Part shown: positions 9,606 to 43,345 of the stretch, in pieces
Position numbering within the stretch: position 1 is the first letter of the stretch
Layout of the letters: every line of letters starts with the position of its first letter
Assembly (NCBI GenBank): GCA_038065455.1
Contig: JBBTQX010000003.1
Location: forward strand, 24,253-88,252
DNA: 64,000 bases
DNA from: Patescibacteria group bacterium
Lineage (GTDB): Bacteria > Patescibacteriota > Minisyncoccia > UBA6257 > GWB1-50-10
Direction: 5' to 3'
Program-made: the position numbers and the translations under genes
Notes under the pieces: model-generated
Seen by the model: only the letters and a program-made list of their open reading frames with translations
Told to the model about the DNA's origin: nothing
Database searches by the model: none

Positions 9606-10390
9606 TTTCCTTTCAGTCTTGCCTTAAAAATCTTTATATCCACCAAAAATCTGTACCAAAATCCCTGGAGAGAGTGGAAAATCAGCCCTTCTTTTCCGTC
9701 CAAAAAGCCGAGCCGGATGAAAAAACGGTAGAAAAAATAAAGGCACGGCCGTAAAAATGGCGGCAAGCGGTAATAAAAAGAGCGTTTCGGATCATTCGCG
9801 GCTCCGCCGTTCAGGATATCCTTCACTTCCCTGTCCGAATATTTTTTGTGGCGCTCTATCCATTCTTTCAATCCTTTCCGGTTATCGTCCACAAAATCGT
9901 TTTTCAGGCGGCCGGACTCGCCTTCGAGCAATATCATATGCTCATCCATCTCTTTGTCTTCGGAACGGCCCATACCTTTCCGCCACAGCCTTAAAAACCA
10001 AATCGGATAATAGCCGCCGTGTTTTATCCAGCGTCCCATAAAATAAACGCGGCGCTTCATATAATATCCGTTGACTGCGGACCCGGAACCAATGACATTT
10101 TTTATTTCCTCCGCGAGTTCGGGAGTGAGATACTCATCGGCATCCAACTTCAAAATCCATTCGCCTTTTATTTCCAAATAATCCAGCGCCCAATTGAACT
10201 GTTCCGCCTGATTTTTGAAAGAATGGGTAAATGTTTCGGCGCCGAGTTTTTTTGCCAATTCAACCGTTCCATCCGTACTGCCAGAATCAACTACGATTAT
10301 CTGGGACGCGAGACTGCCGACGCTTTTAAGGCATCTTTCAAGATGTACGGCTTCGTCTTTGGTAAGAACTATAAGAGTAAGGTTATTCAT
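9602..10390 (-). CDS. Family 2 glycosyltransferase.
   Basis: LIVLTKDEAVHLERCL...VVDSGSTDGT GT2 signature. ATGA overlap with wecB. Confidence 0.7.
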   Translation of the reverse strand: MNNLTLIVLTKDEAVHLERCLKSVGSLASQIIVVDSGSTDGTVELAKKLGAETFTHSFKNQAEQFNWALDYLEIKGEWILKLDADEYLTPELAEEIKNVIGSGSAVNGYYMKRRVYFMGRWIKHGGYYPIWFLRLWRKGMGRSEDKEMDEHMILLEGESGRLKNDFVDDNRKGLKEWIERHKKYSDREVKDILNGGAANDPKRSFYYRLPPFLRPCLYFFYRFFIRLGFLDGKEGLIFHSLQGFWYRFLVDIKIFKARLKGK

Positions 10391-10511
10391 CCCGTTAGAG
10401 ACAGGATGCGCTCAAAAAGCGCATCCGTGATAGATTAGTTAACTCAACTTTATTGGATTTCATTGATTGTTTGATGATTATATTTTTCATAAGGTTTATG
10501 TCTCTAACGGG
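10391..10511. repeat. Copy 2 of the inverted-repeat element (121 bp). It has the same 12-bp TIRs. The hairpin GGATGCGCT...AGCGCATCC carries compensatory changes. It abuts the ATG of the 9602..10390 gene.
   Basis: Read directly from the sequence. Ends are homologous to copy 1 and the interior has diverged. Confidence 0.6.
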
Positions 10512-27676: not shown

Positions 27677-29150
27677 TTGCGCATTTGTAGACGGCGTAGT
27701 TATAACCCGGCGCGGTATTGCCGAGTTTTATGCCGAGGAATTTCGGCGCCTCTCCGGAAAACTTATCGTCGGAAATATCGCACCCGGAAATTTCTGGAGG
27801 AAAAATCATCCCGCTGTATTTTTGCTGAAAGAAAATGAACGCAGTGTTTTCTTTGGGTTTTTCCGGCCAGGGATACACGTACATCCTGCCGTAGTCCTCG
27901 GACAAGGACCAAAAACTGCCGGTAACGCCGAATTTTAAATTGTCGTTTTTATGCTCCCCGCTCTTTTTTGCGAAAACTTCGCGGACCTGGGCGAAGGTTG
28001 GTTCTTCCTTTAAAAACGACGGAAATAAAATAATCGTTCTTAGGAAAGCGGTGGACACTAGCGCCAAGGTCATAAACACCGCCATTTTCGAAAAGTTTCC
28101 GGCTTCGGAAAAATAACAGAGGAAACCGAGAAAAATTATCGGGGCGAAAATCAAAAGATAAAAGATATGCCCAACCGAATAAATCATGCTCGCGAGCATT
28201 ATGAGAAGACCTACCGCGCATAAAGCAAAAAGCCTCGGCGAAGATATTTGTGGCCGATATTTTTTATAAAAAAACCAGCCGGACACAAGCAACAAAATTA
28301 CCACGAAAGCATAGAACGGAGTTACCGGGGATAGGAAATAATATTGGATGAATTTGGATAAGGTGAACCATTCGGAAAGCTGGGCGGTATAACCGGCACT
28401 GACCGCAAGAGCATTTTTGACCGTGCCCGAAAGCGTTTCCCATATACCGAATGGGCCCAATTTAATTGTGAGGAATAGAGTGAGGATACCGAGAATCAAA
28501 GCGCCAAAAATTCTCCCAAAAAATTCTTTCGGCTTATGTCTCGCCGCGAAGACCGTGCCCAAGACAAGGAGTGCGATGATGCCGCCCACAAGATGAGTGG
28601 CGAGCATAAGCCCCAAAAGTATTCCATATAAGCTCCAATCGTATTTTTTACCGGCATAAAAATAGGCCAGAATGCCCAATACTGCCCACAAACTCCCGAG
28701 AATCTCGGGACGGCCGCTTCCGCCAACCAGACCCGAAGCAAGCGCCAAAAGACCGAGGATAACGGCAAAAACTTTCGACCAGCCTAATTCTCCGTCTTTT
28801 TTCGTCGCTCTGAAAAAAATCCATGCGCTTAGCCAAATAACCAAAATGTTCAAAATCGCGATGGTTAGAAAAATATCCAATGGCGCCGCCCCAGTCATTC
28901 CGTGATTCAAAATAAGCGGAAATAACGGCGGATATATCAAAAATCTTTTCATCCCCGACGGGTCTATCGAATCTATGCTTTGCTCGTCCGAAAACAGAGG
29001 GTTCGTAAGAATTCCTTCGTTGGAAAACTGAAGCGCCGGCACCAGAAAAAATTCCGAATCCCCGCCCGGTACGGGATAGGCATTCTTGGCAAAGACCAGA
29101 AAGAGCGCCGCTATGGCCAGACAAACCAGGACCAAGGCGGCCTTTTTCAT
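27654..29150 (-). CDS. Large polytopic membrane protein, possibly a GT-C-like glycosyltransferase or polymerase. The likely start is the internal Met at 29150, not 29213.
   Basis: At least 12 predicted hydrophobic helices. The MKKAAL start gives an ATGA overlap with the upstream gene. Confidence 0.35.
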   Translation of the reverse strand: MKKAALVLVCLAIAALFLVFAKNAYPVPGGDSEFFLVPALQFSNEGILTNPLFSDEQSIDSIDPSGMKRFLIYPPLFPLILNHGMTGAAPLDIFLTIAILNILVIWLSAWIFFRATKKDGELGWSKVFAVILGLLALASGLVGGSGRPEILGSLWAVLGILAYFYAGKKYDWSLYGILLGLMLATHLVGGIIALLVLGTVFAARHKPKEFFGRIFGALILGILTLFLTIKLGPFGIWETLSGTVKNALAVSAGYTAQLSEWFTLSKFIQYYFLSPVTPFYAFVVILLLVSGWFFYKKYRPQISSPRLFALCAVGLLIMLASMIYSVGHIFYLLIFAPIIFLGFLCYFSEAGNFSKMAVFMTLALVSTAFLRTIILFPSFLKEEPTFAQVREVFAKKSGEHKNDNLKFGVTGSFWSLSEDYGRMYVYPWPEKPKENTAFIFFQQKYSGMIFPPEISGCDISDDKFSGEAPKFLGIKLGNTAPGYNYAVYKCAIDEDIKR

Positions 29151-29959
29151 GAATGAGGCTCGAATCTCCCTTTGTTGAAATCGGCCTGGTCGAAAACCTC
29201 CATTTTCTGGCAAATCAAGGTCGTGAACACCCCGTTATTCAACCAACCGGCAACACTCCGGAAAACACGGAAAGGCAGGGAAAGCTGGCGGCTCAAAAAG
29301 AATTCCAATTTCCAAAACGGCGGGAGCGCGGCCCCATAAAACGTTCGTCCCGACAGAACGAAGAAGAAAAAGTTCAGAATAAAGAGTAGAAAATTCGCGA
29401 TCGGGGCGTAGACGAAAAGATTGGGATATTCGAAGGCCTGGTCCACGGAAAAACCGGCCACCTTGAGGAGCCGCCGGATGGATTCCCGGCTATAGATGTG
29501 CATATGGGTTATCTCCCAATCGTTGTAAAAAGGGATACCAATTACGAAAATGCCGTCGTCCTTGAGGATGCGCCGGATGTTCTTCAAGGCGGCATAATCG
29601 TCGTTCACATGCTCGATAATCGCCGATGCCACAATGACGTCGAAGGATTTGTCCGGAATCTTGGTATCTTCCACGTTCCCAATGATTACTTTTCCTAGTT
29701 CATCATCCGGAAAAAGATCCAAGCCAACGACGTCATATCCGGCCGTCTTGAAATAAAGGTAATCCCGCCCGCCATGGACTCCGACAATGAGCACTTTCTT
29801 TTTATCCTTGGGTATCGTCCGCTCAAGCAGATAATGCCAATCGCTCGCGGCCCCGACGCAGACGAACTGCGACCAATACTTCTCGGGCAAAAGCGCGGAC
29901 TTTTCGCCCAAATAGCTTTTTTTCATCTCCCGATAGATGTTTTTTATTTTTTTCATCAT
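29147..29959 (-). CDS. Class I SAM-dependent methyltransferase.
   Basis: VLIVGVHGGRDYLYF motif I. Methyltransf_11-like acidic motifs. Confidence 0.55.
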   Translation of the reverse strand: MMKKIKNIYREMKKSYLGEKSALLPEKYWSQFVCVGAASDWHYLLERTIPKDKKKVLIVGVHGGRDYLYFKTAGYDVVGLDLFPDDELGKVIIGNVEDTKIPDKSFDVIVASAIIEHVNDDYAALKNIRRILKDDGIFVIGIPFYNDWEITHMHIYSRESIRRLLKVAGFSVDQAFEYPNLFVYAPIANFLLFILNFFFFVLSGRTFYGAALPPFWKLEFFLSRQLSLPFRVFRSVAGWLNNGVFTTLICQKMEVFDQADFNKGRFEPHS

Positions 29960-29968
29960 ATTCTTGAA

Positions 29969-31066
29969 TCAATCGGCTTTGAATTTTAAATCTTCAGTCA
30001 AAAAATAATTCGGATCGGGCGAAAATGACCGCTTTCCTCGGAATATTCCCGAAAAACGCCCGACAATCTTCAGAAACGCGTACGGTACGATGCTTATCAT
30101 GATAAGCCATTTTTCTTTCTTTGAATAATCTTTGAAATATTCCTTCACCTTTTCAAAATAGCCGCCGGCATCCGCTCCTCCAAAACGGCTGGAGAAAAAA
30201 ATTAAAATGGCGTTTGAGATAATCGTCAGCCCGCCGAAAAATCGCAGCCGATTGTGATGCTTTTCGAATCCGTGGCTCCCGTAAAAAGATTCGTAAGCCC
30301 GGCGAAGCGCGATTGTATAGCGGAGCTGGCCCTCCCGAGTTTCAAAGGATTCTCCCTCAAGGCCCACGTGATCCTTGCCGTGGACGGTCTTTACGTAAGC
30401 GGCTTTCTTCGTGACAAAAATAGCCGGGTACTTGGCGAGAATTTCAAGAAATATGGGCATATCAAACGGCTCCCGTCTCTCTCCTCTTTGAAACATGTTC
30501 ACGGGATTATCCAAAACTTTCTTCAATCCGACAATGGAATCCTCCCGGCGCAAAAAAGAGATGAATCCGGCACCGCCCGCCTTGCCCAAATAGATATTGC
30601 TGAAAAACCAATCCGCCGAATACTTGCCCGGCCTCATCAGCACCTCGTCCGAAAATTCCAATTTGCCGCTCTCTTTATCCAGTTCGAATGTGATTATGTT
30701 GGTGATTATGGCGGCCGCATCCGGATGCAATACAAAGCTTTTCACGCCTTCCTCCACATAATTCTTCGAAAGCCAATCATCGCTCCCCAATGCCTGCATA
30801 TAAAAACCCGAGGCATATTCGGCGCACTTCAAAAAATTATTTCCGCTTCCGATATTCGTTTCATTCCGGAAATACTTCACGCGCGGGTCCCGCTTCGCGT
30901 ATTTCATAACCACTTCGCGCGTATCATCCGTTGAGGCATTATCAACCACGATTATCTCTATATTCCCGTAAGTTTGGTGGATGGCGCTCTCTATCGTACG
31001 CCAAACCGAATGAGCGCGATTGAAAGTCGGTATGCAGATACTTACCAAAGGGTTCTTTTCGTCCAT
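29969..31066 (-). CDS. Family 2 glycosyltransferase.
   Basis: VSICIPTFNRAHSV...VVDNASTDDT. Confidence 0.7.
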   Translation of the reverse strand: MDEKNPLVSICIPTFNRAHSVWRTIESAIHQTYGNIEIIVVDNASTDDTREVVMKYAKRDPRVKYFRNETNIGSGNNFLKCAEYASGFYMQALGSDDWLSKNYVEEGVKSFVLHPDAAAIITNIITFELDKESGKLEFSDEVLMRPGKYSADWFFSNIYLGKAGGAGFISFLRREDSIVGLKKVLDNPVNMFQRGERREPFDMPIFLEILAKYPAIFVTKKAAYVKTVHGKDHVGLEGESFETREGQLRYTIALRRAYESFYGSHGFEKHHNRLRFFGGLTIISNAILIFFSSRFGGADAGGYFEKVKEYFKDYSKKEKWLIMISIVPYAFLKIVGRFSGIFRGKRSFSPDPNYFLTEDLKFKAD

Positions 31067-31069
31067 TTT

Positions 31070-31813
31070 CTATCTGATTCTTTTTAAGAATCCGTCATAA
31101 GCCACCGTAATGGCCAATTTGTTTTCCATGCTTTTATCGGGAATGAAGTTCTTGTGCATGCGCAAAAATTCCCGGGCCGCCGTCCACGGACTATTTCCCT
31201 TTCCCCAAGGGCGGTTTTTGATTATCCCTTTCGGCAGGAATTCGGCAATAGTATCAAAGGCCACAATATAACTTCCCTTGGTCACAAGAGGAGAATAAAG
31301 TTCCAGTTCCTTGAGAACGTGGGCGTGGGAGTGATTGGAATCCAAAAATACGATAATTTTCCTCTTGCCTCGAGCGAATTTTTTAACCTTATTCAAAATA
31401 ACAGGGTCTACCGACGAGCCCTCAAGCATTGAAATCCGCTTGAACATCCTATGAGCTTCTATTTTTTGGCGGTTGTGTTCGCGAATATCGGTATCTATCC
31501 CCAAAACCTCTCCCTTGCCGCCGATGAGTTCCAATATGGAAGCGGAAAGAATGAGCGAGCCGCCGCGCGCGATACCCGTTTCAATCACCAAATCCGGCTT
31601 CACGTTCCAGATAAGCTCTTGGATGGCCATAATATCCTCCGGATATTGGATTATCGGCCTCCCCAGCCAATCAAAATTATAAGGATACCTGTCTTTCATT
31701 GCCTGGCTCGCGAAATCAAGCGCGAGTTTTTTGAGCCGCTTGTCGGACCCGAGACGCTTGATATTGGCTTCCCGTTCTTTGGCAAATTCTTTTTCGTCAT
31801 TTTTGAATTTCAC
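31070..31813 (-). CDS. CmcI-family SAM methyltransferase (cephalosporin hydroxylase / rhamnosyl O-methyltransferase family). The probable start is GTG at 31813, giving a GTGA overlap with the upstream stop.
   Basis: YPYNFDWLGRPIIQYPEDIMAIQELIWNVKPDLVIETG matches the CmcI family core. The 31885 TTG start in the ORF track is less likely. Confidence 0.55.
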   Translation of the reverse strand: MKFKNDEKEFAKEREANIKRLGSDKRLKKLALDFASQAMKDRYPYNFDWLGRPIIQYPEDIMAIQELIWNVKPDLVIETGIARGGSLILSASILELIGGKGEVLGIDTDIREHNRQKIEAHRMFKRISMLEGSSVDPVILNKVKKFARGKRKIIVFLDSNHSHAHVLKELELYSPLVTKGSYIVAFDTIAEFLPKGIIKNRPWGKGNSPWTAAREFLRMHKNFIPDKSMENKLAITVAYDGFLKRIR

Positions 31814-32763
31814 TTTTGTTTTTTCAGCATATCTATGACCTTTCCCTCGTCTATTTCGAAAATATCCGACACGGGCCGGAGCCAATCCTCGTTGGCAAGC
31901 TCCCGCCTTATCACCATCTTATTTTCAAGATTAACATTACCGCAGATTTCGGCAAGCAGGGAATCAGCCGGAATATTGGCGCTCTTGCTGTCATCTACAA
32001 CAACTATCTTTTTGGTTTTTTTTACGCTTTCGACTATCGGAGACCAGTCGGTCGCGAGCGCCGAATTCACGTTGAAATGCGCGGCGTTTATCCCTTGTTC
32101 CTTAAGCACCGAATTCAATTTGTGTGTTTGGGGAAAAGAAAAGTTAAAAGATACCAGGGTTGCATCGTTGCCTTCCGAGTATTGGAATATCGTTCCATCG
32201 CCGAATATTTTGAGCGGCTCTCCAGGCTCGATAATATCCATCTTTCCCAATCTCTGGCTTACGCCGATAATCCGGAAACCGGGCTGAACAAGATGTTTGG
32301 AAAAAATGAAATCCGCATCGGCTTTGCTGGTAACCGCAAATCCCGGAATTCTCGCGATGGAGCAAAAATCCGCGAAATTATTCAAGCTGGACTGAGGACC
32401 CTCATAGCCGCTATCGACGACCGTCGCCACTATCGTGAATGAACCGCCCTTCAACTGATGTTTCATGCTTCGAATGATATTATAGGTATTCGCAAGCTGG
32501 TCGATGCCCAACAGCAAGAAATCCATTTGTTTCATAAAAAATACGCCGGAGACGCCGTTCAGCATCAGGCCAAAACCGAAACCAACCAAACTATTCTCGG
32601 CATTCGTGGAATTGAAAATCCGGCCGCCGGGGTTAACCTTCATTCCCCGCGTGAGCCCTCCCAGACAGGAACCGGCATTGATATTCTGCCCAAAAAGCAC
32701 CGCGTGTTCGGGCTTGGCAACTTCTTCCTTGATTAAGTTGTTCAAATATTCAACGTATTTCAT
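31810..32763 (-). CDS. TPP-dependent 2-oxoacid dehydrogenase E1 beta-like subunit (transketolase C-terminal-like).
   Basis: PEHAVLFGQNI...GGLTRGM pyrimidine-binding region. 317 aa. Paired with an alpha-like subunit upstream. Confidence 0.6.
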   Translation of the reverse strand: MKYVEYLNNLIKEEVAKPEHAVLFGQNINAGSCLGGLTRGMKVNPGGRIFNSTNAENSLVGFGFGLMLNGVSGVFFMKQMDFLLLGIDQLANTYNIIRSMKHQLKGGSFTIVATVVDSGYEGPQSSLNNFADFCSIARIPGFAVTSKADADFIFSKHLVQPGFRIIGVSQRLGKMDIIEPGEPLKIFGDGTIFQYSEGNDATLVSFNFSFPQTHKLNSVLKEQGINAAHFNVNSALATDWSPIVESVKKTKKIVVVDDSKSANIPADSLLAEICGNVNLENKMVIRRELANEDWLRPVSDIFEIDEGKVIDMLKKQK

Positions 32764-33658
32764 TTTGCAGTTCTTTCGTTATTTTTTCGGAAAGTTCGGC
32801 GAATTTTTCCCGGCCCATCTCTTCGCGCACGACGAAAACCGGGTCGTTTTCGTTTTCCTGGATGATTACCTTGGTCATGTCCACGGTCGGAGCCGGACCG
32901 GCATGATAATTGATGAATCTTCCGTCATCGGCTCTCCGGTCGCCCAATGTCTTCACTGTCGCCTCAATGCATACAGGGCCGCCGCCCCTCAACGCTTCAT
33001 TTTTCGCGCCTTGAAGCGTTTCAATATATTTATGGGCATGATTTCCCTCCATTTTAACATACGGAATATTGACCGAGCCGGCCATCTGCTTCAAATCGAT
33101 AACGCATCTTCTTTCCGAAATACTGGTTCCCAAAGACCATTCGTTGTTTTCTATCACAAAAATCAGATTCAACCCCAATGTTTTTGCTAAAACCAGGCTT
33201 TCGTAAAAGCTTCCTTCTTCCATGGAACCATCCCCGCCCAAAACAAAAACAGTGCTGTTTTTTCCTTTCACCTTGTCGGCCATACTGATGCCGGCGGAAA
33301 CAGGAAAATTATTTCCCAAAATACTTGAGCTGTAAACGATTCCGCGCTCCGGATTAATGACATTCATCGAACCGAGTTTCCCTTCCGCGAGACCCGTCGG
33401 CAAGAGGAGATATTCGTCCAGTATCGGACGCAATTTTCCGAGCCGAGCCAGATTATAAGCCGCGTTCCGATGGGGTAATATCAGTTTGTCCCCGTCTTCA
33501 AGAACGTGATTCATAGCAACCGCGATTGCTTCGTGCCCCAAAGCCAAATGAACCGGGATTTTGAATTTCCCGGCTTTATATTCCTCGTTTACGAGAAGTT
33601 GGCTGAGCCGCAGCCGCAAAATCTCCTCGGCTATTTTTTCATCGTTCGTTTCCATCAT
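32750..33658 (-). CDS. TPP-dependent E1 alpha-like subunit.
   Basis: FVLGGDGSMEEGSFYESL...FVIENNEWSLGTS matches the TPP-binding GDG...NN motif of E1 alpha. Confidence 0.6.
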   Translation of the reverse strand: MMETNDEKIAEEILRLRLSQLLVNEEYKAGKFKIPVHLALGHEAIAVAMNHVLEDGDKLILPHRNAAYNLARLGKLRPILDEYLLLPTGLAEGKLGSMNVINPERGIVYSSSILGNNFPVSAGISMADKVKGKNSTVFVLGGDGSMEEGSFYESLVLAKTLGLNLIFVIENNEWSLGTSISERRCVIDLKQMAGSVNIPYVKMEGNHAHKYIETLQGAKNEALRGGGPVCIEATVKTLGDRRADDGRFINYHAGPAPTVDMTKVIIQENENDPVFVVREEMGREKFAELSEKITKELQNEIR

Positions 33659-34536: not shown

Positions 34537-35435
34537 ATCTGTTTTTTACTGAAATACTCGACGGTTTTCTTCACTCCTTCGGAAATTCCTGTTTTAGGCT
34601 TCCAGCCGAGCTCTTTTTTTATTTTTGAGATATTAGCATAGAAACCCCGCGAACGCACTTTTTTAACGCTCCACTTCGGCGCGGGCAAATTTAAATTCTC
34701 ATAAACCTCTTTCACTACTTCTGCCACGCTTGTGAGCCGGCCGGAACCGACGTTGTAGATTACGCTCGGTTTTTTGCTCTTTTCCAAAATTTTTACGAGT
34801 GCTTCGACGACGTCGTCAATATAGACGAAATCATTGGCGCCGGATTTATTCTTCACTTCCGGCATAACTCCGTTCCCGAAGCTCCGCACCAAATGAGCGA
34901 TAAGCGTCCGGGATTTTTGGCCGGGACCATAGGCGAAGAATAATCTGGGCCACAAGAACTGCATTTTATTCTGGAGAGCAATCTGCTCCCCCATCGCCTG
35001 AATCGTCCTTTTCGCGATGACAAAATCCAGAACATGGGCTGGCGGCAAAAGCGAAGCCGATTCTTTCAAAGAGCCTTTGCCATCGCCATATTCCCAACAA
35101 CTCCCGACTGAAAGGAATTTTTTGCACCCAAGCTCGGCCGCCACAGAAATCAAATTCAAACTATTCATCATATTTCCCAAGCTCACGCCAGCGGAAAAAT
35201 CGTAATTCTCCAGCCCTTCCCAAGCCAAATGAATCACGGCGTCCGGCCGGAATTTTTTCAGCTTGTTTTTCCAACCGTTGATATTTTTCAAATCCCCTTT
35301 GATGGAAGAGGGCGACTTGCCGACCCTTCCGGACCTTTTTCTCGAAAGCAGAAGCAATTTATGCTTGCGCGTCAAAAGCTTCGGCACCAGATGCGAACCG
35401 ATGAAACCGCTTCCGCCGGTGATGAAAATTTTCAT
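34533..35435 (-). CDS. NAD-dependent epimerase/dehydratase.
   Basis: MKIFITGGSGFIGSHLVPKL. Confidence 0.65.
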   Translation of the reverse strand: MKIFITGGSGFIGSHLVPKLLTRKHKLLLLSRKRSGRVGKSPSSIKGDLKNINGWKNKLKKFRPDAVIHLAWEGLENYDFSAGVSLGNMMNSLNLISVAAELGCKKFLSVGSCWEYGDGKGSLKESASLLPPAHVLDFVIAKRTIQAMGEQIALQNKMQFLWPRLFFAYGPGQKSRTLIAHLVRSFGNGVMPEVKNKSGANDFVYIDDVVEALVKILEKSKKPSVIYNVGSGRLTSVAEVVKEVYENLNLPAPKWSVKKVRSRGFYANISKIKKELGWKPKTGISEGVKKTVEYFSKKQI

Positions 35436-36640
35436 GAATTCAATAATGATTTTACTGCGGTTTCCAATATCTCTCCAGTTTTCAAAATAATCGTTTTACA
35501 TTCCGCCGCTTCGCCCGCCAGCCTGTCGCTTTCGGTATCCCCGATAAAGACGGATTTTGTCAGATTAAGCTTGTGTTCCCGGGCGGCTTGGAAAAACATT
35601 CCCGGCTTCGGCTTCCGACAAAGGCAATTATCGTCGTTTCCGTGAAAACAATGGTAAATTCCCGCAATCTGTCCGCCGTGTTTTTCAATTTCGGCAGTCA
35701 TTCTTATATGAATATCCTTCAAATCATCTTCCGTCATCAGCCCGCGCGATATTCCCCGCTGGTTAGTAATGATATAAATTTCATAACCCGCTTTCGTAAG
35801 TGCCGTAAACGCATCCAATACTCCGGGCAAAAACTCAAATTCCTCCCATTTTTTCACGTAATCATGCGGAGGCATCTGTTTGTTTATCACTCCGTCACGG
35901 TCAAGAAAAATGACTTTTTTGGATTTGAAAAATTCTTCAACGACCGGTATCTGCCCCACTGTCGTAATCGCGTAATAAGGATGGTCGGTTACATAAGCCG
36001 CAAGGCTATTGTTTTGGATGAGTTTCGGAAGAATCGTGTGTTCAAAAGAAAAATTATCTTTCGGCATCATATCGATGATGTTTTTTTTCATCAAGAAAAA
36101 TCCAATATCCACCGCATTCAAATTGGGGTCTTTGCTGAACGGGCCGTAATAAGCAACATGCTCATCTTCTTGAACCCGAACATTGTTCTCCCGGCCATGT
36201 TCGGCATCACCGTTCACGTTGGAATAAGCCACGAGACTTCCAACAACATTTTTCTCGCTATAAAATTCAACCAATTTTTTGAGATTTAACGGCCAATAAT
36301 TATCGCTGTATAGGAGAAGAAATTCGTCCGCGAGAAGCGGTGCGGCGTTTCTAACCCGAGTACCGGTAAGATCATCCACGCTCCCGATGGAATATTTGAT
36401 TGAAACACCAAATTTTTTGCCGTCGCTGAAATATTCCGTTATCTTCTCCGGCATATATCCCAAAAGTAGAACCACCTCTTTGATTCCATTCTCTTTCAAT
36501 AGATTTATCAGATGTTCCAAAAACGGCTTACCATTAATCAATATCATCGGCTTCGGCCGATCGTTTGTAAGTGGTCTTAATCGTTCACCTTTTCCGCCGG
36601 CCAAAATAACGGCCTGAGTAATCGGTTTTATTTCACCCAT
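35432..36640 (-). CDS. Bifunctional D-glycero-D-manno-heptose 1-phosphate nucleotidyltransferase (HddC-like) fused to D,D-heptose 1,7-bisphosphate phosphatase (GmhB-like).
   Basis: N-terminal ILAGGKGERLRPLT nucleotidyltransferase motif. C-terminal HAD FLDRDGVIN motif plus CFHGNDDNCLCRKPKPGM Zn motif of GmhB. Confidence 0.65.
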   Translation of the reverse strand: MGEIKPITQAVILAGGKGERLRPLTNDRPKPMILINGKPFLEHLINLLKENGIKEVVLLLGYMPEKITEYFSDGKKFGVSIKYSIGSVDDLTGTRVRNAAPLLADEFLLLYSDNYWPLNLKKLVEFYSEKNVVGSLVAYSNVNGDAEHGRENNVRVQEDEHVAYYGPFSKDPNLNAVDIGFFLMKKNIIDMMPKDNFSFEHTILPKLIQNNSLAAYVTDHPYYAITTVGQIPVVEEFFKSKKVIFLDRDGVINKQMPPHDYVKKWEEFEFLPGVLDAFTALTKAGYEIYIITNQRGISRGLMTEDDLKDIHIRMTAEIEKHGGQIAGIYHCFHGNDDNCLCRKPKPGMFFQAAREHKLNLTKSVFIGDTESDRLAGEAAECKTIILKTGEILETAVKSLLNS

Positions 36641-37662
36641 CTCAATCGTTCGTCAATCTCCTTTTTTTCCTGGAGGTATTGAATCTGTTTCAGCCGGTTG
36701 CACTCCCTCCCCCGGAAACGCTCTTCCGTGAAATTTATCTTTTTGAAAAACTCCGTCAATTCCTTGCCTCCCCTATCCAAATCCCATTCCGGCTTGTAGT
36801 AGTCCTTAAGCTCCGAGAGAATCCGCTTAAATGAAACGCGATAGGTTCGCGAGTCCTTGCCGTGCTCGCCGGTAAATGTGAGCGCGCTTCCGGGTACGGA
36901 ACGCTGGGCGGCTTCGGCCAGATCGCGGACGGTATAGTTACCGTTCAGCACACCGACATTGAAAGATCGGCCGGCTACCAATTCCTTGGGCGCTTCCAAG
37001 CCCACTATGAACGCGCTGGAAACGTCCCTTACGTGCACCACTGGGCGCCAAGGCGTGCCGTCGCTCTTTACCTCCACCTTGCCGGTCGTATAGGCGGAGG
37101 CGACAAGATTATTGAAGACGATATCGCACCGGAGGCGCGGGCTCGCGCCGAAGACCGTGGAGGGCCGGAAACAGACGATCATAAAACCATCCGAATTCAT
37201 CTTCTTTAAGGCCACTTCGGCATCCCACTTGGTCCGCGCATAGGCCGTAACACCGAATGGCCCCGCTTCGTCTTCCGCAAGTTCGTGGCTCGTATCCGCC
37301 ACGCCATACATACTCTGCGAGGAGGCGTAAACGAAACGCTTCACGCCGGCGCGCTTGGCGCACTCCGCCAGTTTGAGCGTTCCCTCCAAATTTATCTCCT
37401 CCGTAATCCCAGGCGTGAGTTCACCCAACGGGTCGTTTGAGAGCGCCGCAAGGTGAATCACGGCATCAATACCGGCCAAATCTTCATCGGTAACATCGCG
37501 AGTATCCTTCGTTATTTGGCGTGCCAGGTTCTGAACCGAAACCAATGCATTATCTTTGTAAAAGCCGGTATCGTAGCCAACGACATCATATCCTCGCTCG
37601 CAGAGGACTTCCGTTAGCACCGTTCCTATATACCCCCTGTTCCCTGTTACGAGAATTGTCAT
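36628..37662 (-). CDS. NAD-dependent epimerase/dehydratase.
   Basis: MTILVTGNRGYIGTVLTEVL Rossmann motif. 344 aa. Confidence 0.65.
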   Translation of the reverse strand: MTILVTGNRGYIGTVLTEVLCERGYDVVGYDTGFYKDNALVSVQNLARQITKDTRDVTDEDLAGIDAVIHLAALSNDPLGELTPGITEEINLEGTLKLAECAKRAGVKRFVYASSQSMYGVADTSHELAEDEAGPFGVTAYARTKWDAEVALKKMNSDGFMIVCFRPSTVFGASPRLRCDIVFNNLVASAYTTGKVEVKSDGTPWRPVVHVRDVSSAFIVGLEAPKELVAGRSFNVGVLNGNYTVRDLAEAAQRSVPGSALTFTGEHGKDSRTYRVSFKRILSELKDYYKPEWDLDRGGKELTEFFKKINFTEERFRGRECNRLKQIQYLQEKKEIDERLRWVK

Positions 37663-37717
37663 TTTATAAGATTAAAACTATTTAAGTTTAACCGATAAAA
37701 GTTAGAATGATAAGTGT

Positions 37718-37745
37718 TTGACATAAATCATATATATGCTATTAT
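37718..37745 (+). promoter_or_regulatory. Consensus sigma70 promoter TTGACA-16-TATTAT upstream of the SemiSWEET gene.
   Basis: Read from the sequence. A homologous copy lies at 38934. Confidence 0.45.
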
Positions 37746-37803
37746 ACTTTTCAGTTATTTAACAAAAAAGTATATTATCCAACAATGATAAGGAGACTTA
37801 GTT

Positions 37804-38073
37804 ATGGAAAAAGAGGAAAAATGGAAATTAGCGGGATTTTTAGGAACATGGATAAGTATCATATCTTTTACCCCTCAAGTTTATTCCGTTTGGGTAAATC
37901 TGCCTAAACCAGCGACAGATATATCGCTCGGAATGTATATGATGCTCAGCCTTAGTAGTATTCTTTGGCTAATGTATGGATTAAAAAACAGGATAAAGCC
38001 AATCTGGCTTTCAAATTTATTCGTCCTCGTGTTTTCTCTGTCGATTATAATTTATAAAACTATCTTCGGATAA
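37804..38073 (+). CDS. SemiSWEET (PQ-loop) sugar transporter, 3-TM.
   Basis: 89 aa. FTPQVY PQ motif in TM1. TDISLGMYMM...LWLMYG...PIWLSN pattern matches bacterial SemiSWEETs. AAGGAG SD lies 8 nt upstream. Confidence 0.7.
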   Translation: MEKEEKWKLAGFLGTWISIISFTPQVYSVWVNLPKPATDISLGMYMMLSLSSILWLMYGLKNRIKPIWLSNLFVLVFSLSIIIYKTIFG

Positions 38074-38197
38074 AATCAAATTCCCCATCTAAATAATTTA
38101 GATGGGAAATTTTTATTGCGGAATATCGCATCTTTCCAAAATACTCCGCGGGGAGATACGGAATTTTTATCAAAGATGGTATTTAAGAATCGAGATA

Positions 38198-38872
38198 TCA
38201 ATACCGAGCCACTCTCTTATCTCGTTCATCCATGTATTTCAGAACCTCCGCTGCCGAAATGAGGTCGCCATTTTTATAATATTTTTCTATTTTTGCCAAT
38301 TCGTTAGCCAGAAGCTCGCTCCGAGTCCCTTTCAAAATCCCCTGCGAGTGGGTGATGTGTTCTTCCCAGCTTTGGGGGATGCCAGGGAAACTATAGACTA
38401 ATAAATTCGATTTTGATTTCACGACCGCGCTCACGACCGAGACGAAGGCCCTCAATTGATGGAGAGGTGGAGCGATGATAAAAACGCTTTTCCATCCATT
38501 ATTCTTCGCATAGTCTACCAGTCCCCAAGCTTCGGCATCCGTACTCGGAGGAAACTTATCCGACGGCGGTACGCTGTAGATATCTTCTTTTTTCACGCCC
38601 ATTTCCACCAGCTCGTTTCGCCAATTTTTGAAACCCGGATACCCGAAACCCTCGGGCATCCCGCACAATCCCAGTTTTTTAACCGGGCCCAAGCTATACA
38701 AGAAACCGGCCGCTTTCAAGACCGATGACTGATTATCTTTTGTCTCGCCAAAGAGATAGGCGGCTTCAACCCTGCCGGATGTTGCTGAATCGCAAAGCAC
38801 TCGGGTAATTAACTCGTCTAATTCCAGATAGGAGGATGTGATTGATTTGAAAATTTTTTTCTTTTTATCCAT
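38198..38872 (-). CDS. DUF218/YdcF-SanA-like domain protein.
   Basis: 224 aa. IIAPPLHQLRAF resembles the DUF218 vtsxyHmxRA motif. Assignment is tentative. Confidence 0.35.
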   Translation of the reverse strand: MDKKKKIFKSITSSYLELDELITRVLCDSATSGRVEAAYLFGETKDNQSSVLKAAGFLYSLGPVKKLGLCGMPEGFGYPGFKNWRNELVEMGVKKEDIYSVPPSDKFPPSTDAEAWGLVDYAKNNGWKSVFIIAPPLHQLRAFVSVVSAVVKSKSNLLVYSFPGIPQSWEEHITHSQGILKGTRSELLANELAKIEKYYKNGDLISAAEVLKYMDERDKRVARY

Positions 38873-38933
38873 AAAAGCTTATTTATTCATAATATCATTA
38901 TTATCTTGAACAGGACACTGTTTTAACGAGTGT

Positions 38934-38962
38934 TTGACAGAATAACTATTTAGTGCTATTCT
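38934..38962 (+). promoter_or_regulatory. Second copy of the TTGACA-17-TATTCT promoter module upstream of the small ORF.
   Basis: AGTGTTTGACA...GCTATT.TTATAC is shared with the 37714 region. Confidence 0.4.
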
Positions 38963-39024
38963 TATACAAGATCTTACAAAAATTAAATAAAACCTCAAAC
39001 CAAACACAGAAAGGAAAAGAAGCT

Positions 39025-39282
39025 ATGAACCAAACAATTCACGAATTCGATGAGTTCGGGTGCACTAATGGGCCAGATTGCGAACAGTGCAAACAGTTGG
39101 ATATTGAGATATTAAGGTGGGAACAACGACATCCCACGAGAACAAAGCTGTTCAACGCACTGAAAATTATTGTTCCAGCCGTGGGGGTTACCTTTACATT
39201 CTTGTGCATGGCCGGGATGTACATATACGTAACCTGGTTATTAACATCCAAAACACTACAAATCCTAAGGGGTTTGTTCTAA
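39025..39282 (+). CDS. Small Cys-rich protein with a C-terminal TM helix. The likely start is 39025 with an AAGGA SD. The ORF track begins at 38953.
   Basis: CTNGPDCEQC N-terminal motif. Hydrophobic C-terminus. Followed by a terminator. Confidence 0.35.
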   Translation: MNQTIHEFDEFGCTNGPDCEQCKQLDIEILRWEQRHPTRTKLFNALKIIVPAVGVTFTFLCMAGMYIYVTWLLTSKTLQILRGLF

Positions 39283-39305
39283 TTCAATTTCTTTTGGGTT
39301 ACTAG

Positions 39306-39336
39306 GGACTGGAAAACACTTCCAGTCCTATTTTTT
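39306..39336 (+). terminator. Rho-independent terminator (GGACTGGAA / TTCCAGTCC stem followed by a T run).
   Basis: 9-bp perfect stem, 5-nt loop, TATTTTTT tail. Confidence 0.55.
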
Positions 39337-39356
39337 ATAGTTATTTTCGGGTATTC

Positions 39357-39602
39357 CTAGTTAATTGGCACAAGAGATAACGACTTTTTAAGATAGTATC
39401 TAGGGTTTTCAAACAATTTTTGGTATGGGAGCTTCATGCTCTTGAGCCAGGTGTGGGAGAGAAGGGAAAAGCGGATCCGACAACTGCGGCAATGATATCT
39501 TCCTTGTCTGGCGACGACCTTTCTCGTACTCCAACCCCGATATTTGACCAGACGAACCGCTTCCATCCGGAGCTTGGGCATATGATGATTCTTTGTATAC
39601 AT
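39357..39602 (-). mobile_element. Remnant of an IS1595-family transposase. Only the N-terminal zinc-ribbon part is present; there is no DDE domain.
   Basis: 81-aa ORF with YHCRSCRIRFS...KLPYQKLF, resembling the IS1595/ISXO2 N-terminal Zn-ribbon region. Truncated. Confidence 0.35.
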
Positions 39603-39748
39603 GCTTGGATTCTAATTCAATCAGGTGATTCCAAGCTATTGGGATATTACGTCAAATTTGACATAAATACTACAGTATGTTAAACTATTAAAAGTTAATT
39701 CACATTGTTAAAAACAAATAAACTGCGTAGAAACGCAAGGAGGTTCCC

Positions 39749-40410
39749 GTGTCATATTCATATGTATACGCTTCAGAAGAAAAATTGTTCGAGATCATCG
39801 CTCGTATTTTGTGCGATAATAGAAATAGACTCAAAAAACCCGTTGATTCTGTCTGTTTCTTCGGACAGACAACCGAGAATGACATGCCGATGATTAGAAG
39901 TGCGGCAAACATTCAAATGGGTGGTCTGGCTCGCCTCGTAGCCATAACAGGATTCGCCGGCGAGAAAAACGGCAGTTTTGAAGTACGTGGTTCCAAGTCT
40001 TTCGCGAACGAAATTATGAAACTCGGAGTTGCTTCAAAGAACATAGTTTCTTTTCCGCTCTCAAAAAATTCCCGCCTTGCACCGATGCCGAAGCAATTGG
40101 GGTCGTTGAGTTTGCGAAATCCCAGGGATGGAAATCCCTCATCGTGACGGTTCCTCCGCTTCACCAGGCCCGGGCTTTCATTTCGACTGTGAGCGCGGCA
40201 ATCAAATACTATCCGGAACTCAAGGTCTACAGTATACCGTCTGAGGCACTTCCTTGGACCGAGGAAGTGATTCACTCTCAGAGCGCACCCCGTGCGAAAC
40301 GGAGTGAACAGTTCGGCGGAGAATTGGCGAAACTCGCCAAATACTCCGGAAAAGGCGATCATGTGTCGCCCGACGAAATCCTCGCCTATCTCAACCGGCG
40401 AGATCAATGA
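39749..40410 (+). pseudogene. Frameshifted paralog of the DUF218-like gene. It is split into ORFs 39749..40147 and 40144..40410 by a -1 change in an A6 homopolymer at 40063..40068.
   Basis: Both halves align to 38198..38872 (PPLHQARAF, HSQSAPRAKRSE vs HSQGILKGTRSE). Restoring a seventh A gives a continuous LSKKFPP reading. GTG start with an AAGGAGG SD. Confidence 0.55.
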
Positions 40411-40483
40411 TAACTATTCGGTAAAAACCGAAATCCCGCAAGATATTTTTGCGGGATTTTTATTTTCCGCTGAAAATTCTTAC

Positions 40484-41080
40484 TTACCCGCGTTCGGCCA
40501 GATGATCGAAGTAGTCCACGAAGTAGCGAGTAATCATGTGCAAAATAACGCCGTGAACGCTCTCCACCGCCTCATACTCCCCCGGAGGAGTTTTGACCAA
40601 TATTTTAGCGGTCGCCAATTCATTCAATTTTCCGCCATCAAAACCCGAAAGGCCGATGATAGGAACTTTGTATTCTTTGGCGACTTCAACCGCTTTTATT
40701 ATATTCGGCGATTTTCCGGAACTGGAAATGGCGATAATGGCATCGGTGTCCTGGATATAATTTTTAAGAGGGCCAGCGAAAACCATATCATAGCCCACGT
40801 CGTTCGCCCAAGCGGTCAGCTCCGATTCGGTGGTGGGAAGCCGTATGGCTTGGAAACGGCGGGCATGCATATCGAGATGATGGCTGAAAACCGTTTTGTT
40901 GAAGTCGCTTACCCAGTGGGTAGCGAGAGCCAAAGAACCCCCATTCCCGAAGATATATATTCTTCCGTCGCGTTCATAGGTCGCCTGAAGGATATCAATC
41001 GCCTTCGCAATTTCTTCGTGGGGCAAGTTGCGGATAAGAGCAATGACCTTTTCCGAAAAATCTTTTATGTATTTTTCCAT
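40484..41080 (-). CDS. gmhA: Phosphoheptose isomerase (sedoheptulose-7-phosphate isomerase, SIS domain).
   Basis: RIYIFGNGGSLALATHWVSDF SIS motif. 198 aa. Confidence 0.75.
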   Translation of the reverse strand: MEKYIKDFSEKVIALIRNLPHEEIAKAIDILQATYERDGRIYIFGNGGSLALATHWVSDFNKTVFSHHLDMHARRFQAIRLPTTESELTAWANDVGYDMVFAGPLKNYIQDTDAIIAISSSGKSPNIIKAVEVAKEYKVPIIGLSGFDGGKLNELATAKILVKTPPGEYEAVESVHGVILHMITRYFVDYFDHLAERG

Positions 41081-41090
41081 CTCCTATAAA

Positions 41091-42116
41091 TTATACCTCT
41101 CTTACCTTAAAAGTATTGTCGTTGTTCATTAAAATTTCCCCGCCCGATTGGACAAAACTGAAGGGAATTTCGTTGAAATCCTGCAATTGATGGGTATTCG
41201 CCGATTTTTGCATTGCTTGGCGGATGGCCGGCTTCTTATCAAGCGGTGCGATAAACAAAACGCAGCCGCCTCCGCCCGCGCCCAGAATTTTCCCGCCCCA
41301 AGCACCGGCATTCAATCCCGCCGTATAAAGACTATCTATAATCGGATTAGAAACATTGGAAGCCAGTGTCTTTTTGAGCATCCAGCCCTCGTGAAGCATT
41401 CTTCCCAATCCTTCAAAATCCCCCGCTATGAGCTTGTCCCGGAATTCAAATACCGAATCGGACATCTTTTTTAAAACCTCGAATTTGTTTTCCGTATTCG
41501 CGCGCTGTTCCGTAAGCACGGATGAAGCATCGCGGGCAATGCCGGTGTAAAAAAGCATAAGATGGTCCTGAAACGCCGCTTTTTGCTTGAAATCCAACCG
41601 AACCGGAGAAACGTCTACCGAATGGTCCTGGTTGAACTGAAAAATATTCAACCCCCCGAAAGCGGAGGCATACTGGTCCTGTTTGCCGATCGGCTCTTTG
41701 ACCAGGTCAATTTCCAGATGCGATGCCAACTCGGCTATTTCTCCCCGCCCCATCTTCTTTCCCTGTGAAAGCGAAAGAGCCTTCATAAGCGCCACCGAAA
41801 AACTGGAAGAAGAACCCAAACCCGTCTTTACCGGCACGTCGGAAAACGTGGCCACATCAATGTTGTTATGGATGCCGAAATGAAGAAGCGCTTCGCGAAC
41901 CCGGTTATGCTTAAGTTCTTTCGGATGATTCACCAATTCGGATGTGACATACCGTACGGAAACCGTTTTAACGAGCGGCGGCCGGTTTATGGTCGCGTAG
42001 GCATATTTATCTATGGCAACGGAAATAACGCGGCCGGGATAACGCGTATAAAACTCTTTGAAGTCGGTGCCGCCCCCGACGAAACTTATCCGCATAGGCG
42101 CTCTCGCGATTATCAT
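41091..42116 (-). CDS. GHMP kinase, D-glycero-alpha-D-manno-heptose 7-phosphate kinase (HddA-like).
   Basis: MIIARAPMRISFVGGGTDF N-terminus. GLGSSSSFSVALMKAL GHMP motif. 341 aa. Confidence 0.65.
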   Translation of the reverse strand: MIIARAPMRISFVGGGTDFKEFYTRYPGRVISVAIDKYAYATINRPPLVKTVSVRYVTSELVNHPKELKHNRVREALLHFGIHNNIDVATFSDVPVKTGLGSSSSFSVALMKALSLSQGKKMGRGEIAELASHLEIDLVKEPIGKQDQYASAFGGLNIFQFNQDHSVDVSPVRLDFKQKAAFQDHLMLFYTGIARDASSVLTEQRANTENKFEVLKKMSDSVFEFRDKLIAGDFEGLGRMLHEGWMLKKTLASNVSNPIIDSLYTAGLNAGAWGGKILGAGGGGCVLFIAPLDKKPAIRQAMQKSANTHQLQDFNEIPFSFVQSGGEILMNNDNTFKVREV

Positions 42117-42160
42117 AACCTATTCACTTTATCCCAAAAAGACAACAAAAATCAAGTCCG

Positions 42161-43345
42161 TCAAGCCGTTATTTTTTTTATCAGCCGGTCGCAAGCTTTT
42201 TCCACCTCGTCCACGGTGATAAGCTCCATGCTTTTATGGACGCATTCCTTTTTCCGATAATCACATTCCAGAAAACGGTGCTGGATAACCTCGTGCCCGG
42301 CGCCGTAAGGAAACCAAAGCCCCGGAATATTCATCGTGGAAAAAAGGGAAACGGTCGGTTTTCCGAACGACGCCATAATATGCATCGGTCCGCTGTCGAT
42401 ACCGAGAAGAAAAGAACAATGCCTGATGAGAGCGGCGGATTCTATCACCATCAGTTTTCCGGCGGTTATCAGAATTTTGTCGGCCTTAAGGTTCCGGGCA
42501 ATCAATTCCGCTTCTTTAACATCTCCCGGGCCGCCGATGATTACGATGCGGGCATTATATTTATCGATTAAATATTCCAAAACCTCCGCGAATCTCTCGG
42601 GTAGCCAGCGTTTCTCCGGAAAATTGGCCTTGGTTGCGAATTGGAGAGCAATAAGGAGTTTCGGCGGCTCGGCGCCCCATTTTGTGGCGAGAATTTCTTT
42701 GACTTTCGCTTCGGCTTCAACCGGAATGGGCAAATCGAATTCCGCATCTCCGACTTTTACGCCCGCTTCCTTCAAAATATCAAGAAGAGTATCCGTTTCC
42801 TGGCGGGCCAGAGTCCAGTCAATCTGCGTTTTTTTGAATAAATTTATAATGACCCGGACCCGAAAACCGAAGGCCGATTTCACTCCCAGAAGGCGGGCAA
42901 AGACCATATTGCGAAAGAGAACCCGAAAACGAGCCCAGGAATCCGCCGGCAAGTTTATGAATATATCGTAATGTTCTTTTCTTAAGCCGCGGACTAGCCG
43001 CAAAATGCTTCCCCAGGAATCAAAATCGTTCACGTCGTATTTGATTATCCGGTCCAGATACCAGGCGCCATGGAGAAGCTCCGAAGCTCCCGGAATGCCT
43101 TTGACGCCCGGCGAAGTAAGAAGGGTGATTTCCGCTTCCGGGTAATTCTTCCGAATGGCGATAAACGACGGAATGGCGCAGATTATATCGCCGATATTTC
43201 CCACTTTGAAAACGAGTATCTTTTTCGGAGATTCGACTCTCCGAAAGAAAAAAACCGCTTCGCAAACCCTTAACGCGAGATTAAGGGAATTTTTGGACAG
43301 CCGGACGATTCCAAGTTCTATTTTCTGTTTGAAACCCGGTTCCAT
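42161..43345 (-). CDS. Family 9 glycosyltransferase (heptosyltransferase-like).
   Basis: KILVFKVGNIGDIICAIP N-terminal motif typical of GT9. C-terminal GIDSGPMHIMAS region. Confidence 0.7.
   Translation of the reverse strand: MEPGFKQKIELGIVRLSKNSLNLALRVCEAVFFFRRVESPKKILVFKVGNIGDIICAIPSFIAIRKNYPEAEITLLTSPGVKGIPGASELLHGAWYLDRIIKYDVNDFDSWGSILRLVRGLRKEHYDIFINLPADSWARFRVLFRNMVFARLLGVKSAFGFRVRVIINLFKKTQIDWTLARQETDTLLDILKEAGVKVGDAEFDLPIPVEAEAKVKEILATKWGAEPPKLLIALQFATKANFPEKRWLPERFAEVLEYLIDKYNARIVIIGGPGDVKEAELIARNLKADKILITAGKLMVIESAALIRHCSFLLGIDSGPMHIMASFGKPTVSLFSTMNIPGLWFPYGAGHEVIQHRFLECDYRKKECVHKSMELITVDEVEKACDRLIKKITA

Follow-up and report, generated by a model that had tools for sequence, protein, structure and literature searches.

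The junction between two heptose-glycan operons in a groundwater Patescibacteria genome: foreign island or native variable locus?

Introduction

Is a 2.8-kb segment that separates the GDP-heptose genes of a Patescibacteria genome a piece of foreign DNA, or does it belong to the surface-glycan cluster in which it lies? Clusters of the GDP-D-glycero-alpha-D-manno-heptose pathway, with the enzymes GmhA, HddA, GmhB and HddC, are known from the S-layer glycan of Aneurinibacillus thermoaerophilus and the capsule of Campylobacter jejuni. The 64,000-nt stretch of DNA analysed here (hereafter the window) encodes all four activities, in genes that stand on either side of positions 37663-40483 (hereafter the junction). 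The junction holds a SemiSWEET gene, two DUF218-like paralogs termed type A and type B, a small cysteine-rich open reading frame (ORF) and a transposase relic, together with strong promoters and Shine-Dalgarno (SD) sites. An earlier note on this DNA interpreted the whole segment as a horizontally acquired or insertion sequence (IS)-mediated insertion that brought its own, foreign expression signals and split the pathway genes.

Comparison with relatives points to a different reading, to which we give a probability of about 0.7: the segment is a native, variable inter-operon junction of a modified-heptose surface-glycan cluster of Parcubacteria, composed of a type A/B backbone and recent additions, rather than one foreign island. 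The backbone would consist of the two divergently oriented paralogs, type A (224 aa) and type B (220 aa), which would belong to the cluster. The additions in this lineage would be the SemiSWEET gene, placed between type A and the epimerase gene, and an insert of ~0.78 kb that separates type A from type B.

The host genome of the window is of Parcubacteria type within the Candidate Phyla Radiation (CPR; Patescibacteria) and derives from Hainich groundwater. An odd block of expression signals in a CPR genome need not mean foreign DNA; here it would mark leadered, SD-dependent stand-alone genes. CPR surface glycans probably mediate host attachment. Literature searches yielded no account of how Patescibacteria use SD sites, of their SemiSWEETs or of their heptose clusters.

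Gene order of the junction in relatives

Pfam and NCBIfam matches confirmed that the epimerase and fused hddC/gmhB genes lie to the left of the junction, and gmhA and hddA to its right (Table 1); the matches of the four pathway enzymes are significant yet stay under the equivalog cutoffs. As in the A. thermoaerophilus and C. jejuni clusters, the four activities are encoded beside epimerases/dehydratases of the short-chain dehydrogenase/reductase (SDR) type. Further such neighbours are a cupin epimerase, methyltransferases, a GT9 heptosyltransferase and a Wzy_C ligase. The window differs from the two known clusters in the fusion of hddC with gmhB, in the separation of two operons by the junction, in the CPR host, and in a DUF218-like gene as constant companion.

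Homologs of the DUF218-like genes were located in their own contigs and in GTDB representatives (the scan was made with 12 closer members), and their neighbours were assigned by tblastn with the window proteins; L-numbers denote contigs or loci of relatives or strains. Both type A and type B are conserved in glycan clusters of Parcubacteria, at 35-63% identity. Type A directly follows a C-methyltransferase (CMT)-cupin pair in L012/L027, L017/L026, L019 and L028, and is flanked by cupin and CMT genes on the opposite strand in L030. It lies upstream of the 344-aa epimerase-hddC/gmhB genes in L011, L012, L015, L016 and L028. A second, type B-like paralog on the opposite strand is present in L012, L015, L016 and L029. 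The relative L016, with 83% identity, has the order hddA-gmhA-type B-type A-X-epimerase, which is that of the window without the IS relic.

The order in L019 is CMT-cupin-type A-hddA-gmhA-SDR-hddC/gmhB, all on one strand, with contiguous heptose genes and type A in the same run. The expectation that the pathway genes are adjacent in some relative is therefore borne out, but a foreign split is not, as the DUF218-like gene sits in that operon too. The gene orders suggest that the pathway genes were rearranged around the DUF218-like gene and not split by foreign DNA. Lineages differ in where GT9-hddA-gmhA stands with respect to the DUF218-like backbone.

The exact 224-aa type A protein was found on at least 22 contigs, all with identical neighbours; these contigs stem from independent Hainich groundwater assemblies (0.1-um fraction of wells H41 and H52) and several Logan runs. 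It is annotated there as a protein of the Patescibacteria group. Because the same neighbours recur on these independent contigs, from different samples and assemblers, a chimeric assembly, against which the earlier note had advised a check, is excluded as the source of the arrangement. A relative 63% identical to type A is annotated as a YdcF family protein of Candidatus Liptonbacteria.

Expression signals of the junction

A perfect TTGACA with a 16-17-nt spacer and a TG-extended -10 box occurs at three sites in the 64 kb, all of them in the junction and on the + strand; the chance that all three fall in one 2.8-kb segment of one strand is ~1e-5. The near-consensus sigma-70 promoters described before are therefore real, and number three (37718, 38934 and 39658; P1-P3 in Table 1), not two. 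They are placed 59-63 nt before the start codons, with leaders that fold no better than shuffles, and Rfam at gathering thresholds gave no match in the window and hence no riboswitch in these leaders. We rejected the idea that P1 and P2 are a simple sequence duplication, as they have only ~14 nt and the -10 region in common.

The three + strand genes are preceded by the strong SD sites AAGGAG, AAGGA and AAGGAGG, with spacers of 8, 9 and 5 nt. By a simple gene model of the window, SD sites of at least 5 nt precede only 2 of the 49 flanking genes, as against all three + strand junction genes (5-7 nt, spacing 5-9; Fisher p=0.002-0.004), and SD sites are thus indeed uncommon in the window outside the junction. 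The type A gene has neither an SD site nor a consensus promoter. The flanking genes are tightly packed, with overlaps at 15 of 43 gene junctions; of these 15 overlaps, seven are of 4 nt. The picture of flanks that mostly lack SD sites and use 4-nt overlaps thus holds for the SD sites, and for the overlaps to this extent. The clean terminators were also confirmed, as three hairpins with z = -2.8, -3.7 and -5.3 (folding energy against shuffled controls).

These signals have counterparts in other species. Between the window and L011, the intergenic region of the SemiSWEET gene shows 86% identity, which extends to the -35 box, the extended -10 box and the SD site. Alignment with L016 showed that the promoter, leader hairpin and SD site of type B are homologous to their counterparts there, and TTTGACA and TGnTA are common to six slot-gene promoters from three species. 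In relatives, operon genes lack SD sites, whereas type B paralogs and small slot genes have them (AGGAGG and GAGGT in L012, AAGGAG in L016). Since promoter and SD site are conserved in other species, we take the signals to be native, and their description as foreign does not hold.

The SD contrast is best read as two native modes of initiation, in which operon genes would be leaderless or coupled and leadered stand-alone genes SD-dependent. We infer from motifs and their spacing that each of the three + strand genes would be monocistronic, with a near-consensus sigma-70 extended -10 promoter, an unstructured leader of ~50-60 nt, a strong SD site and a terminator. The upstream operon (...GT9-hddA-gmhA) would end at the 40430-40460 terminator, and type A and the epimerase operon would start from weaker promoters a few nucleotides from the ATG. 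The epimerase gene has a -10-like box 6 nt before its ATG and no SD site.

Across the window, operon-first genes, clpB among them, lack an SD site and have a -10-like hexamer whose end lies 6-10 nt from the ATG (for example, at the starts 5390, 18752, 37662, 42116 and 58462). This geometry suggests that leaderless or near-leaderless mRNAs are widespread in this CPR genome.

In addition, an 18-nt inverted repeat, TATTATACTTTTCAGTTA / TAACAAAAAAGTATATTA (37740-37777; 83% complementary), spans the -10 box of P1 and the start of the SemiSWEET leader. It is loosely kept in L011 and could be an operator.

Table 1. Genes and expression signals of the junction and its flanks (window coordinates).
Feature	Position	Strand	Evidence or remark
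hddC/gmhB fusion (nucleotidyltransferase and HAD phosphatase)	35432..36640	-	Pfam NTP_transferase and HAD; NCBIfam GmhB E=1e-50, HddC E=8e-28
SDR epimerase/dehydratase, 344 aa; first gene of downstream operon, strain-variable allele	36628..37662	-	Pfam Epimerase E=2e-43
Promoter P1, TTGACA-16-TG-TATTAT, for SemiSWEET gene	37718..37745	+	Motif scan; conserved in L011
SD AAGGAG, 8 nt before SemiSWEET ATG	37790..37795	+	Conserved in L011
SemiSWEET, 89-aa PQ-loop protein, predicted sugar uniporter; putative accessory cargo	37804..38073	+	NCBIfam, phmmer, Foldseek
Bidirectional intrinsic terminator between convergent SemiSWEET and type A	38078..38112	.	-14.2 kcal/mol, z = -2.8
Type A DUF218/YdcF-like gene, 224 aa, predicted cytoplasmic; core cluster member	38198..38872	-	Family alignment, AlphaFold2, synteny
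Promoter P2, TTGACA-17-TG-TATTCT, for 85-aa ORFan	38934..38962	+	Motif scan; shares AGTGTTTGACA and TGCTATT with P1
SD AAGGA, 9 nt before ATG of 85-aa ORF	39011..39015	+	SD scan
85-aa ORFan, N-terminal C-x5-C-x2-C, then one hydrophobic segment	39025..39282	+	Hydropathy, homolog searches
Intrinsic terminator after 85-aa ORF	39305..39329	+	-16.1 kcal/mol, z = -3.7
Composite transposase relic, one 81-aa ORF	39357..39602	-	Exhaustive HMMER search, then Pfam on matches
Promoter P3, TTGACA-17-TG-TAAACT, for type B paralog	39658..39686	+	Homologous to L016 type B promoter
Leader hairpin TGCGT-AGAA-ACGCA abutting SD AAGGAGG (39737-39743; spacer 5)	39723..39743	+	Kept in L016, loop change only
Type B DUF218-like paralog, intact form 220 aa; here split, 132 + 88 aa	39749..40410	+	ORFs, allele alignment
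Bidirectional terminator between convergent type B and gmhA	40430..40460	.	-24.1 kcal/mol, z = -5.3
gmhA (sedoheptulose-7-P isomerase); last gene of upstream operon	40484..41080	-	Pfam SIS_2; NCBIfam phosphoheptose isomerase E=7e-29
hddA-like GHMP heptose-7-P kinase	41091..42116	-	Pfam GHMP_kinases_N and _C; NCBIfam HddA E=8e-47

Probable recent additions to the junction

The identification of the 89-aa protein as a SemiSWEET is well founded. NCBIfam SemiSWEET_2 matches it over the full length (E=1e-13), though at 51.2 bits against a curated cutoff of 80, and Pfam MtN3_slv also stays below threshold (21 against 23.7). A phmmer comparison with the solved SemiSWEETs 4QNC and 5UHS gave E=1e-10, and a Foldseek search with its AlphaFold2 model returned SemiSWEET structures at all of ranks 1-15, with a TM-score of ~0.6. 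The model comprises three transmembrane helices (residues 2-31, kinked, 37-61 and 65-88), of which the second and third are clear in hydropathy and the first is weaker. The PQ motif P24-Q25 and residues W55 and N71 align with the corresponding residues of 5UHS and 4QNC; in SemiSWEETs, this conserved Trp/Asn pair belongs to the binding pocket. Compared to the SemiSWEET of Leptospira biflexa (4QNC), the window protein agrees in its 89 aa, PQ motif, Trp55/Asn71 and fold, but falls below the curated cutoffs and is restricted to this species and one relative.

The SemiSWEET gene has a GC content at third codon positions (GC3) of 0.37 against a window mean of 0.56, and its codon-usage score lies under all 20,000 length-matched samples. 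In a word-indexed homolog search and among the loci compared, it was found solely here and in the nearest relative L011 (86% identity), and the homologous slot in other relatives holds unrelated genes. Because of this aberrant composition and restricted presence, we regard the gene as accessory cargo that was plausibly gained before this lineage and that of L011 diverged. That it is not conserved with the cluster argues against a tight coupling to the heptose pathway, to which, as the earlier note proposed, it might supply imported sugar.

The second addition, from 38873 to ~39650 (~0.78 kb), has no counterpart in an alignment with L016 and holds P2, the 85-aa ORF with its terminator, and the 81-aa ORF of the relic. 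The small cysteine-rich protein described before is indeed encoded there, as a codon-usage outlier with a single hydrophobic segment and hence a predicted membrane protein. The word-indexed search found no homolog beyond the ORF itself, and neither Pfam nor NCBIfam gave a match at E<=0.01, which makes it an ORFan, possibly a young gene or else no more than an ORF that is expressed.

Direct Pfam and NCBIfam searches with the 81-aa ORF gave nothing usable; the exhaustive search resolved it into three parts. Residues 1-30 (~39513-39602) share 83% identity with the N-terminus of an IS481/rve-type transposase, residues 26-63 (~39414-39527) correspond at 60-71% identity to the second half of the IS1595 zinc ribbon, and residues 62-81 (~39366-39437) match the extreme C-terminus of IS1595 transposases. 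The assignment as an IS1595 remnant is thus right for part of the ORF, which is nevertheless composite, with an IS481/rve-type N-terminus. No catalytic part of DDE_Tnp_IS1595 or rve is left in the relic, and the window holds no other copy. Besides the 60-83% identity to N- and C-terminal transposase pieces, it differs from IS1595 and IS481 elements in that ~80 codons are left, two families are fused in one frame and no terminal repeats were recognised. Likely an IS1595 element landed in an IS481-like element, and both were later deleted to about 80 codons.

In L028 (8695-10486), from another Parcubacteria genome, two genes occupy the slot between type A and the epimerase gene: one for a 349-aa protein with a NUDIX domain, and one for an intact IS481-like (rve) transposase of 296 aa, a member of the family to which the N-terminal piece of the relic belongs. 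As an intact IS481-like transposase adjoins the epimerase gene there, the neighbourhood appears to be a recurrent IS landing site.

The DUF218-like paralogs

Neither type A nor type B has a Pfam match even at E<=10 or an NCBIfam match, and the gathering threshold of PF02698 is not reached. Among 38 family members, 12 match Pfam DUF218 (PF02698) co-linearly below threshold (best E=2e-5; individual scores of 14.9-22.2 bits were seen against a cutoff of 27.6), and no other family recurs as often. The term DUF218-like, taken over from the earlier note, may reasonably stand for remote homology, and not for membership at the Pfam level.

With 35 clusters among 5.8 billion, this is a small family. 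Its alignment revealed invariant Thr44, His138, Arg141, Phe143, Glu191, Tyr198, Tyr213 and Arg217, and a near-invariant TDAEA motif. The AlphaFold2 model of type A (pLDDT 88) adopts an alpha/beta fold, and hydropathy gave no transmembrane segment.

The family resembles the DUF218 proteins YdcF, SanA and ElyC (PF02698) in the co-linear matches, in the Rossmann-like alpha/beta model and in conserved T..E and H..R motifs. Its setting in glycan clusters also recalls the link of ElyC and SanA to envelope-glycan biology that is reported in two papers (PMC3879167, PMC12176290). Unlike these proteins, the window family has no membrane anchor, is found only in CPR and DPANN, and lies within NDP-heptose tailoring clusters. 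Type A and type B would be soluble auxiliary or tailoring proteins that act with the C-methyltransferase-cupin pair and the NDP-heptose enzymes. A small family missed by Pfam is hereby defined and tied to modified-heptose glycan clusters of Parcubacteria, and offers a target for biochemistry.

Groundwater DPANN genomes contain members at 33-35% identity, in metagenome-assembled genomes of Nanoarchaeota (L031, 5558-6217) and Pacearchaeota (L033, 2254-2919). Their context is conserved: a gene for a ~605-aa protein is followed by the DUF218-like gene and then by a gene for an uncharacterised protein of ~408 aa, with no obvious sugar cluster. The ~605-aa protein has sub-threshold Ig-like Pfam matches in L031 and none in L033. 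These members could reflect gene sharing between CPR and DPANN.

Frameshift alleles of type B

Type B is split in this assembly, as had been noted, by an A6 tract at 40063-40068; an A7 allele encodes the intact 220 aa. Over 885 bp, A6 versus A7 is the sole difference between the window and L002 on one side and five other assemblies on the other. The A6 product recurs on 12 contigs, among them those of three H41 assemblies and of two Logan runs, and A7 is present in both H52 assemblies and four other runs (L007 was judged intact by ORF length). The A6 allele is therefore real and structured by population. In L016, a type B gene has independently lost 1 nt in a C tract ~15 nt from the A6 site. 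Both frameshift sites read as X_XXY_YYZ heptamers, at which a -1 slip restores the full-length protein. We nonetheless rejected programmed -1 frameshifting as the main reading, as no stimulatory elements were found and intact alleles exist.

In this strain, the poly-A tract of type B has recently contracted by one base, and the gene is most likely non-functional. Together, the changes in type B are read as recurrent inactivation of a dispensable paralog, with phase variation as a minority possibility.

Alternative explanations

That the whole 2.8 kb is a single acquired or IS-mediated island, with foreign promoters and SD sites, inserted into a contiguous GDP-heptose operon, appears very unlikely. 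Such an island would suit the IS relics, the outlying composition of the SemiSWEET and ORFan genes, the concentration of SD sites and consensus promoters, and the GC content, which dips to 0.34-0.41 across 37500-39750; hddA-gmhA and SDR-hddC/gmhB are, moreover, contiguous in L019. Much of that dip, however, stems from the SemiSWEET gene and six AT-rich spacers (GC 0.21-0.34) that stay within the spread of other intergenic regions of the window (0.14-0.54). Type A and type B, which make up about half of the segment, are conserved in the cluster and near-normal in GC3; atypical composition marks the SemiSWEET and ORFan genes and not the unit as a whole. The signals are conserved at orthologous genes of other species, and the gene order of the window is found in L016 without the IS relic, even though SD sites are not common elsewhere in the window. 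Convincing direct repeats at the flanks, an intact mobility gene or integrase at the junction, and a tRNA in the window (ARAGORN) were sought, and none was found. Only the SemiSWEET gene and the ~0.78-kb insert vary among related genomes, in which type A and type B are present. These two additions look recent; horizontal or IS-mediated acquisition of the segment as one unit is largely refuted by synteny.

The variation at type B admits another explanation, in which its homopolymer is a phase-variable switch, or slippage by -1 occurs on A_AAA_AAT, so as to vary the decoration of the heptose glycan. We consider this unlikely. It would fit the single A6/A7 change in 885 bp, the recurrence of each allele across several independent assemblies, the independent loss in L016, the heptamers at both sites, and the occurrence of A6 and A7 in strains with differing glycan modules. 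Nevertheless, the tracts are short (6-7 nt), and in the well-labelled Hainich assemblies the alleles sort by well, with three A6 contigs from H41 and two A7 contigs from H52, a pattern that resembles fixed differences between strains and not rapid switching. The sequence upstream of the site has no SD-like stimulator, and the one hairpin in the vicinity lies ~60 nt downstream; intact A7 alleles show that type B does not depend on a frameshift, and homopolymer indels are the expected route of ordinary pseudogenisation too. A more far-reaching proposal, equally doubtful, holds that the paralogs form an undescribed class of NDP-heptose tailoring or quality-control proteins specific to CPR and DPANN, with type B as a strain-variable on/off glycan modifier that is recurrently inactivated at homopolymers before the catalytic TDAEA, and the junction as a surface contingency site of an episymbiotic lineage. 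Finally, an artefact behind the arrangement or the frameshift, through chimeric assembly or homopolymer sequencing error, has a next to negligible probability: the source contig of the window has a coverage of only ~7x, but the arrangement recurs as described above, and the A6 allele stands on its 12 contigs from at least five samples.

Several points weigh against the reading of a native junction with two modes of initiation and a DUF218-like backbone. The codon scores of type A and type B are somewhat low (2.7% and 0.5% tails). Some operon-first genes have no recognisable -10 box nearby; the leaderless starts are predicted from motif spacing, and SD use was surveyed over 64 kb in this genome and some 100 kb in relatives. 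The DUF218 link is carried by sub-threshold matches in relatives, because neither window paralog reaches the threshold. Searches of PDB sequences with the family profile and with a single paralog found no solved YdcF, and Foldseek with the type A model against the PDB returned generic HUP-type Rossmann domains only (TM <= 0.4).

Strain-level variation around the junction

Loci for O-antigen and capsule are mosaics in which IS remnants and recombination breakpoints lie where modules meet, and poly-G tracts give phase variation in Campylobacter capsule loci. The present region shares with such loci the IS scars at the junction, a tract of allelic replacement that ends there, a module swap between strains and a homopolymer indel in a glycan-cluster gene. 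It is unlike the phase-variable tracts of C. jejuni in that its tract is short (A6/A7) and its alleles appear fixed per population. The region is thus an ordinary mosaic glycan-locus junction with some interesting details, in which strain diversification within one aquifer is documented by module swap, epimerase allelic replacement, homopolymer frameshift and IS scars.

Compared with L001, a contig of the H52 strain, the window has 341 mismatches over 15.2 kb; 271 fall in 35500-37999, and all but two of these have positions lower than 37616. Divergence in the remainder of the shared locus is mostly 0-0.2% (38000 onward), apart from local clusters, for instance 29 mismatches at 42000-42499. The divergent tract (35500-37615) covers the epimerase gene and the 5' part of hddC/gmhB, leftward to ~35500. 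The epimerase of the two strains is 84.9% identical in nucleotides and 93% in protein, and 124 of the 156 changes are at third codon positions. This tract is an allelic replacement by recombination, the right end of which coincides with the left edge of the junction. The high GC of the epimerase gene was rejected as a sign of transfer, as six of the seven relatives compared have values of 0.52-0.56 for this gene, and L015 has 0.465.

Further to the left, beyond 33654, co-occurring strains have swapped a module (window ~28200-33654 against L001 15220-20675, and L005). In the window, L002 and L003 this module encodes E1_dh, Transketolase_C and a CmcI methyltransferase. In L001 and L005 it encodes a 427-aa methyltransferase and Transketolase_N/pyr, and in L001 also Laminin_G_3, with L005 ending before that point. 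The A6 and A7 alleles of type B go with the two module haplotypes.

A possible paired leader element

A 38-nt element of the form GATGCGC-N7-GCGCATC-YTGTCTCTAACGGG-ATG occurs at 8262-8299 and 10388-10425, both on the - strand, with a conserved stem and differing loops. It stands directly 5' of two unrelated starts, those of a GFO_IDH_MocA oxidoreductase and a GT2 gene, where none would be expected by chance, and could be a shared leader or a regulatory hairpin.

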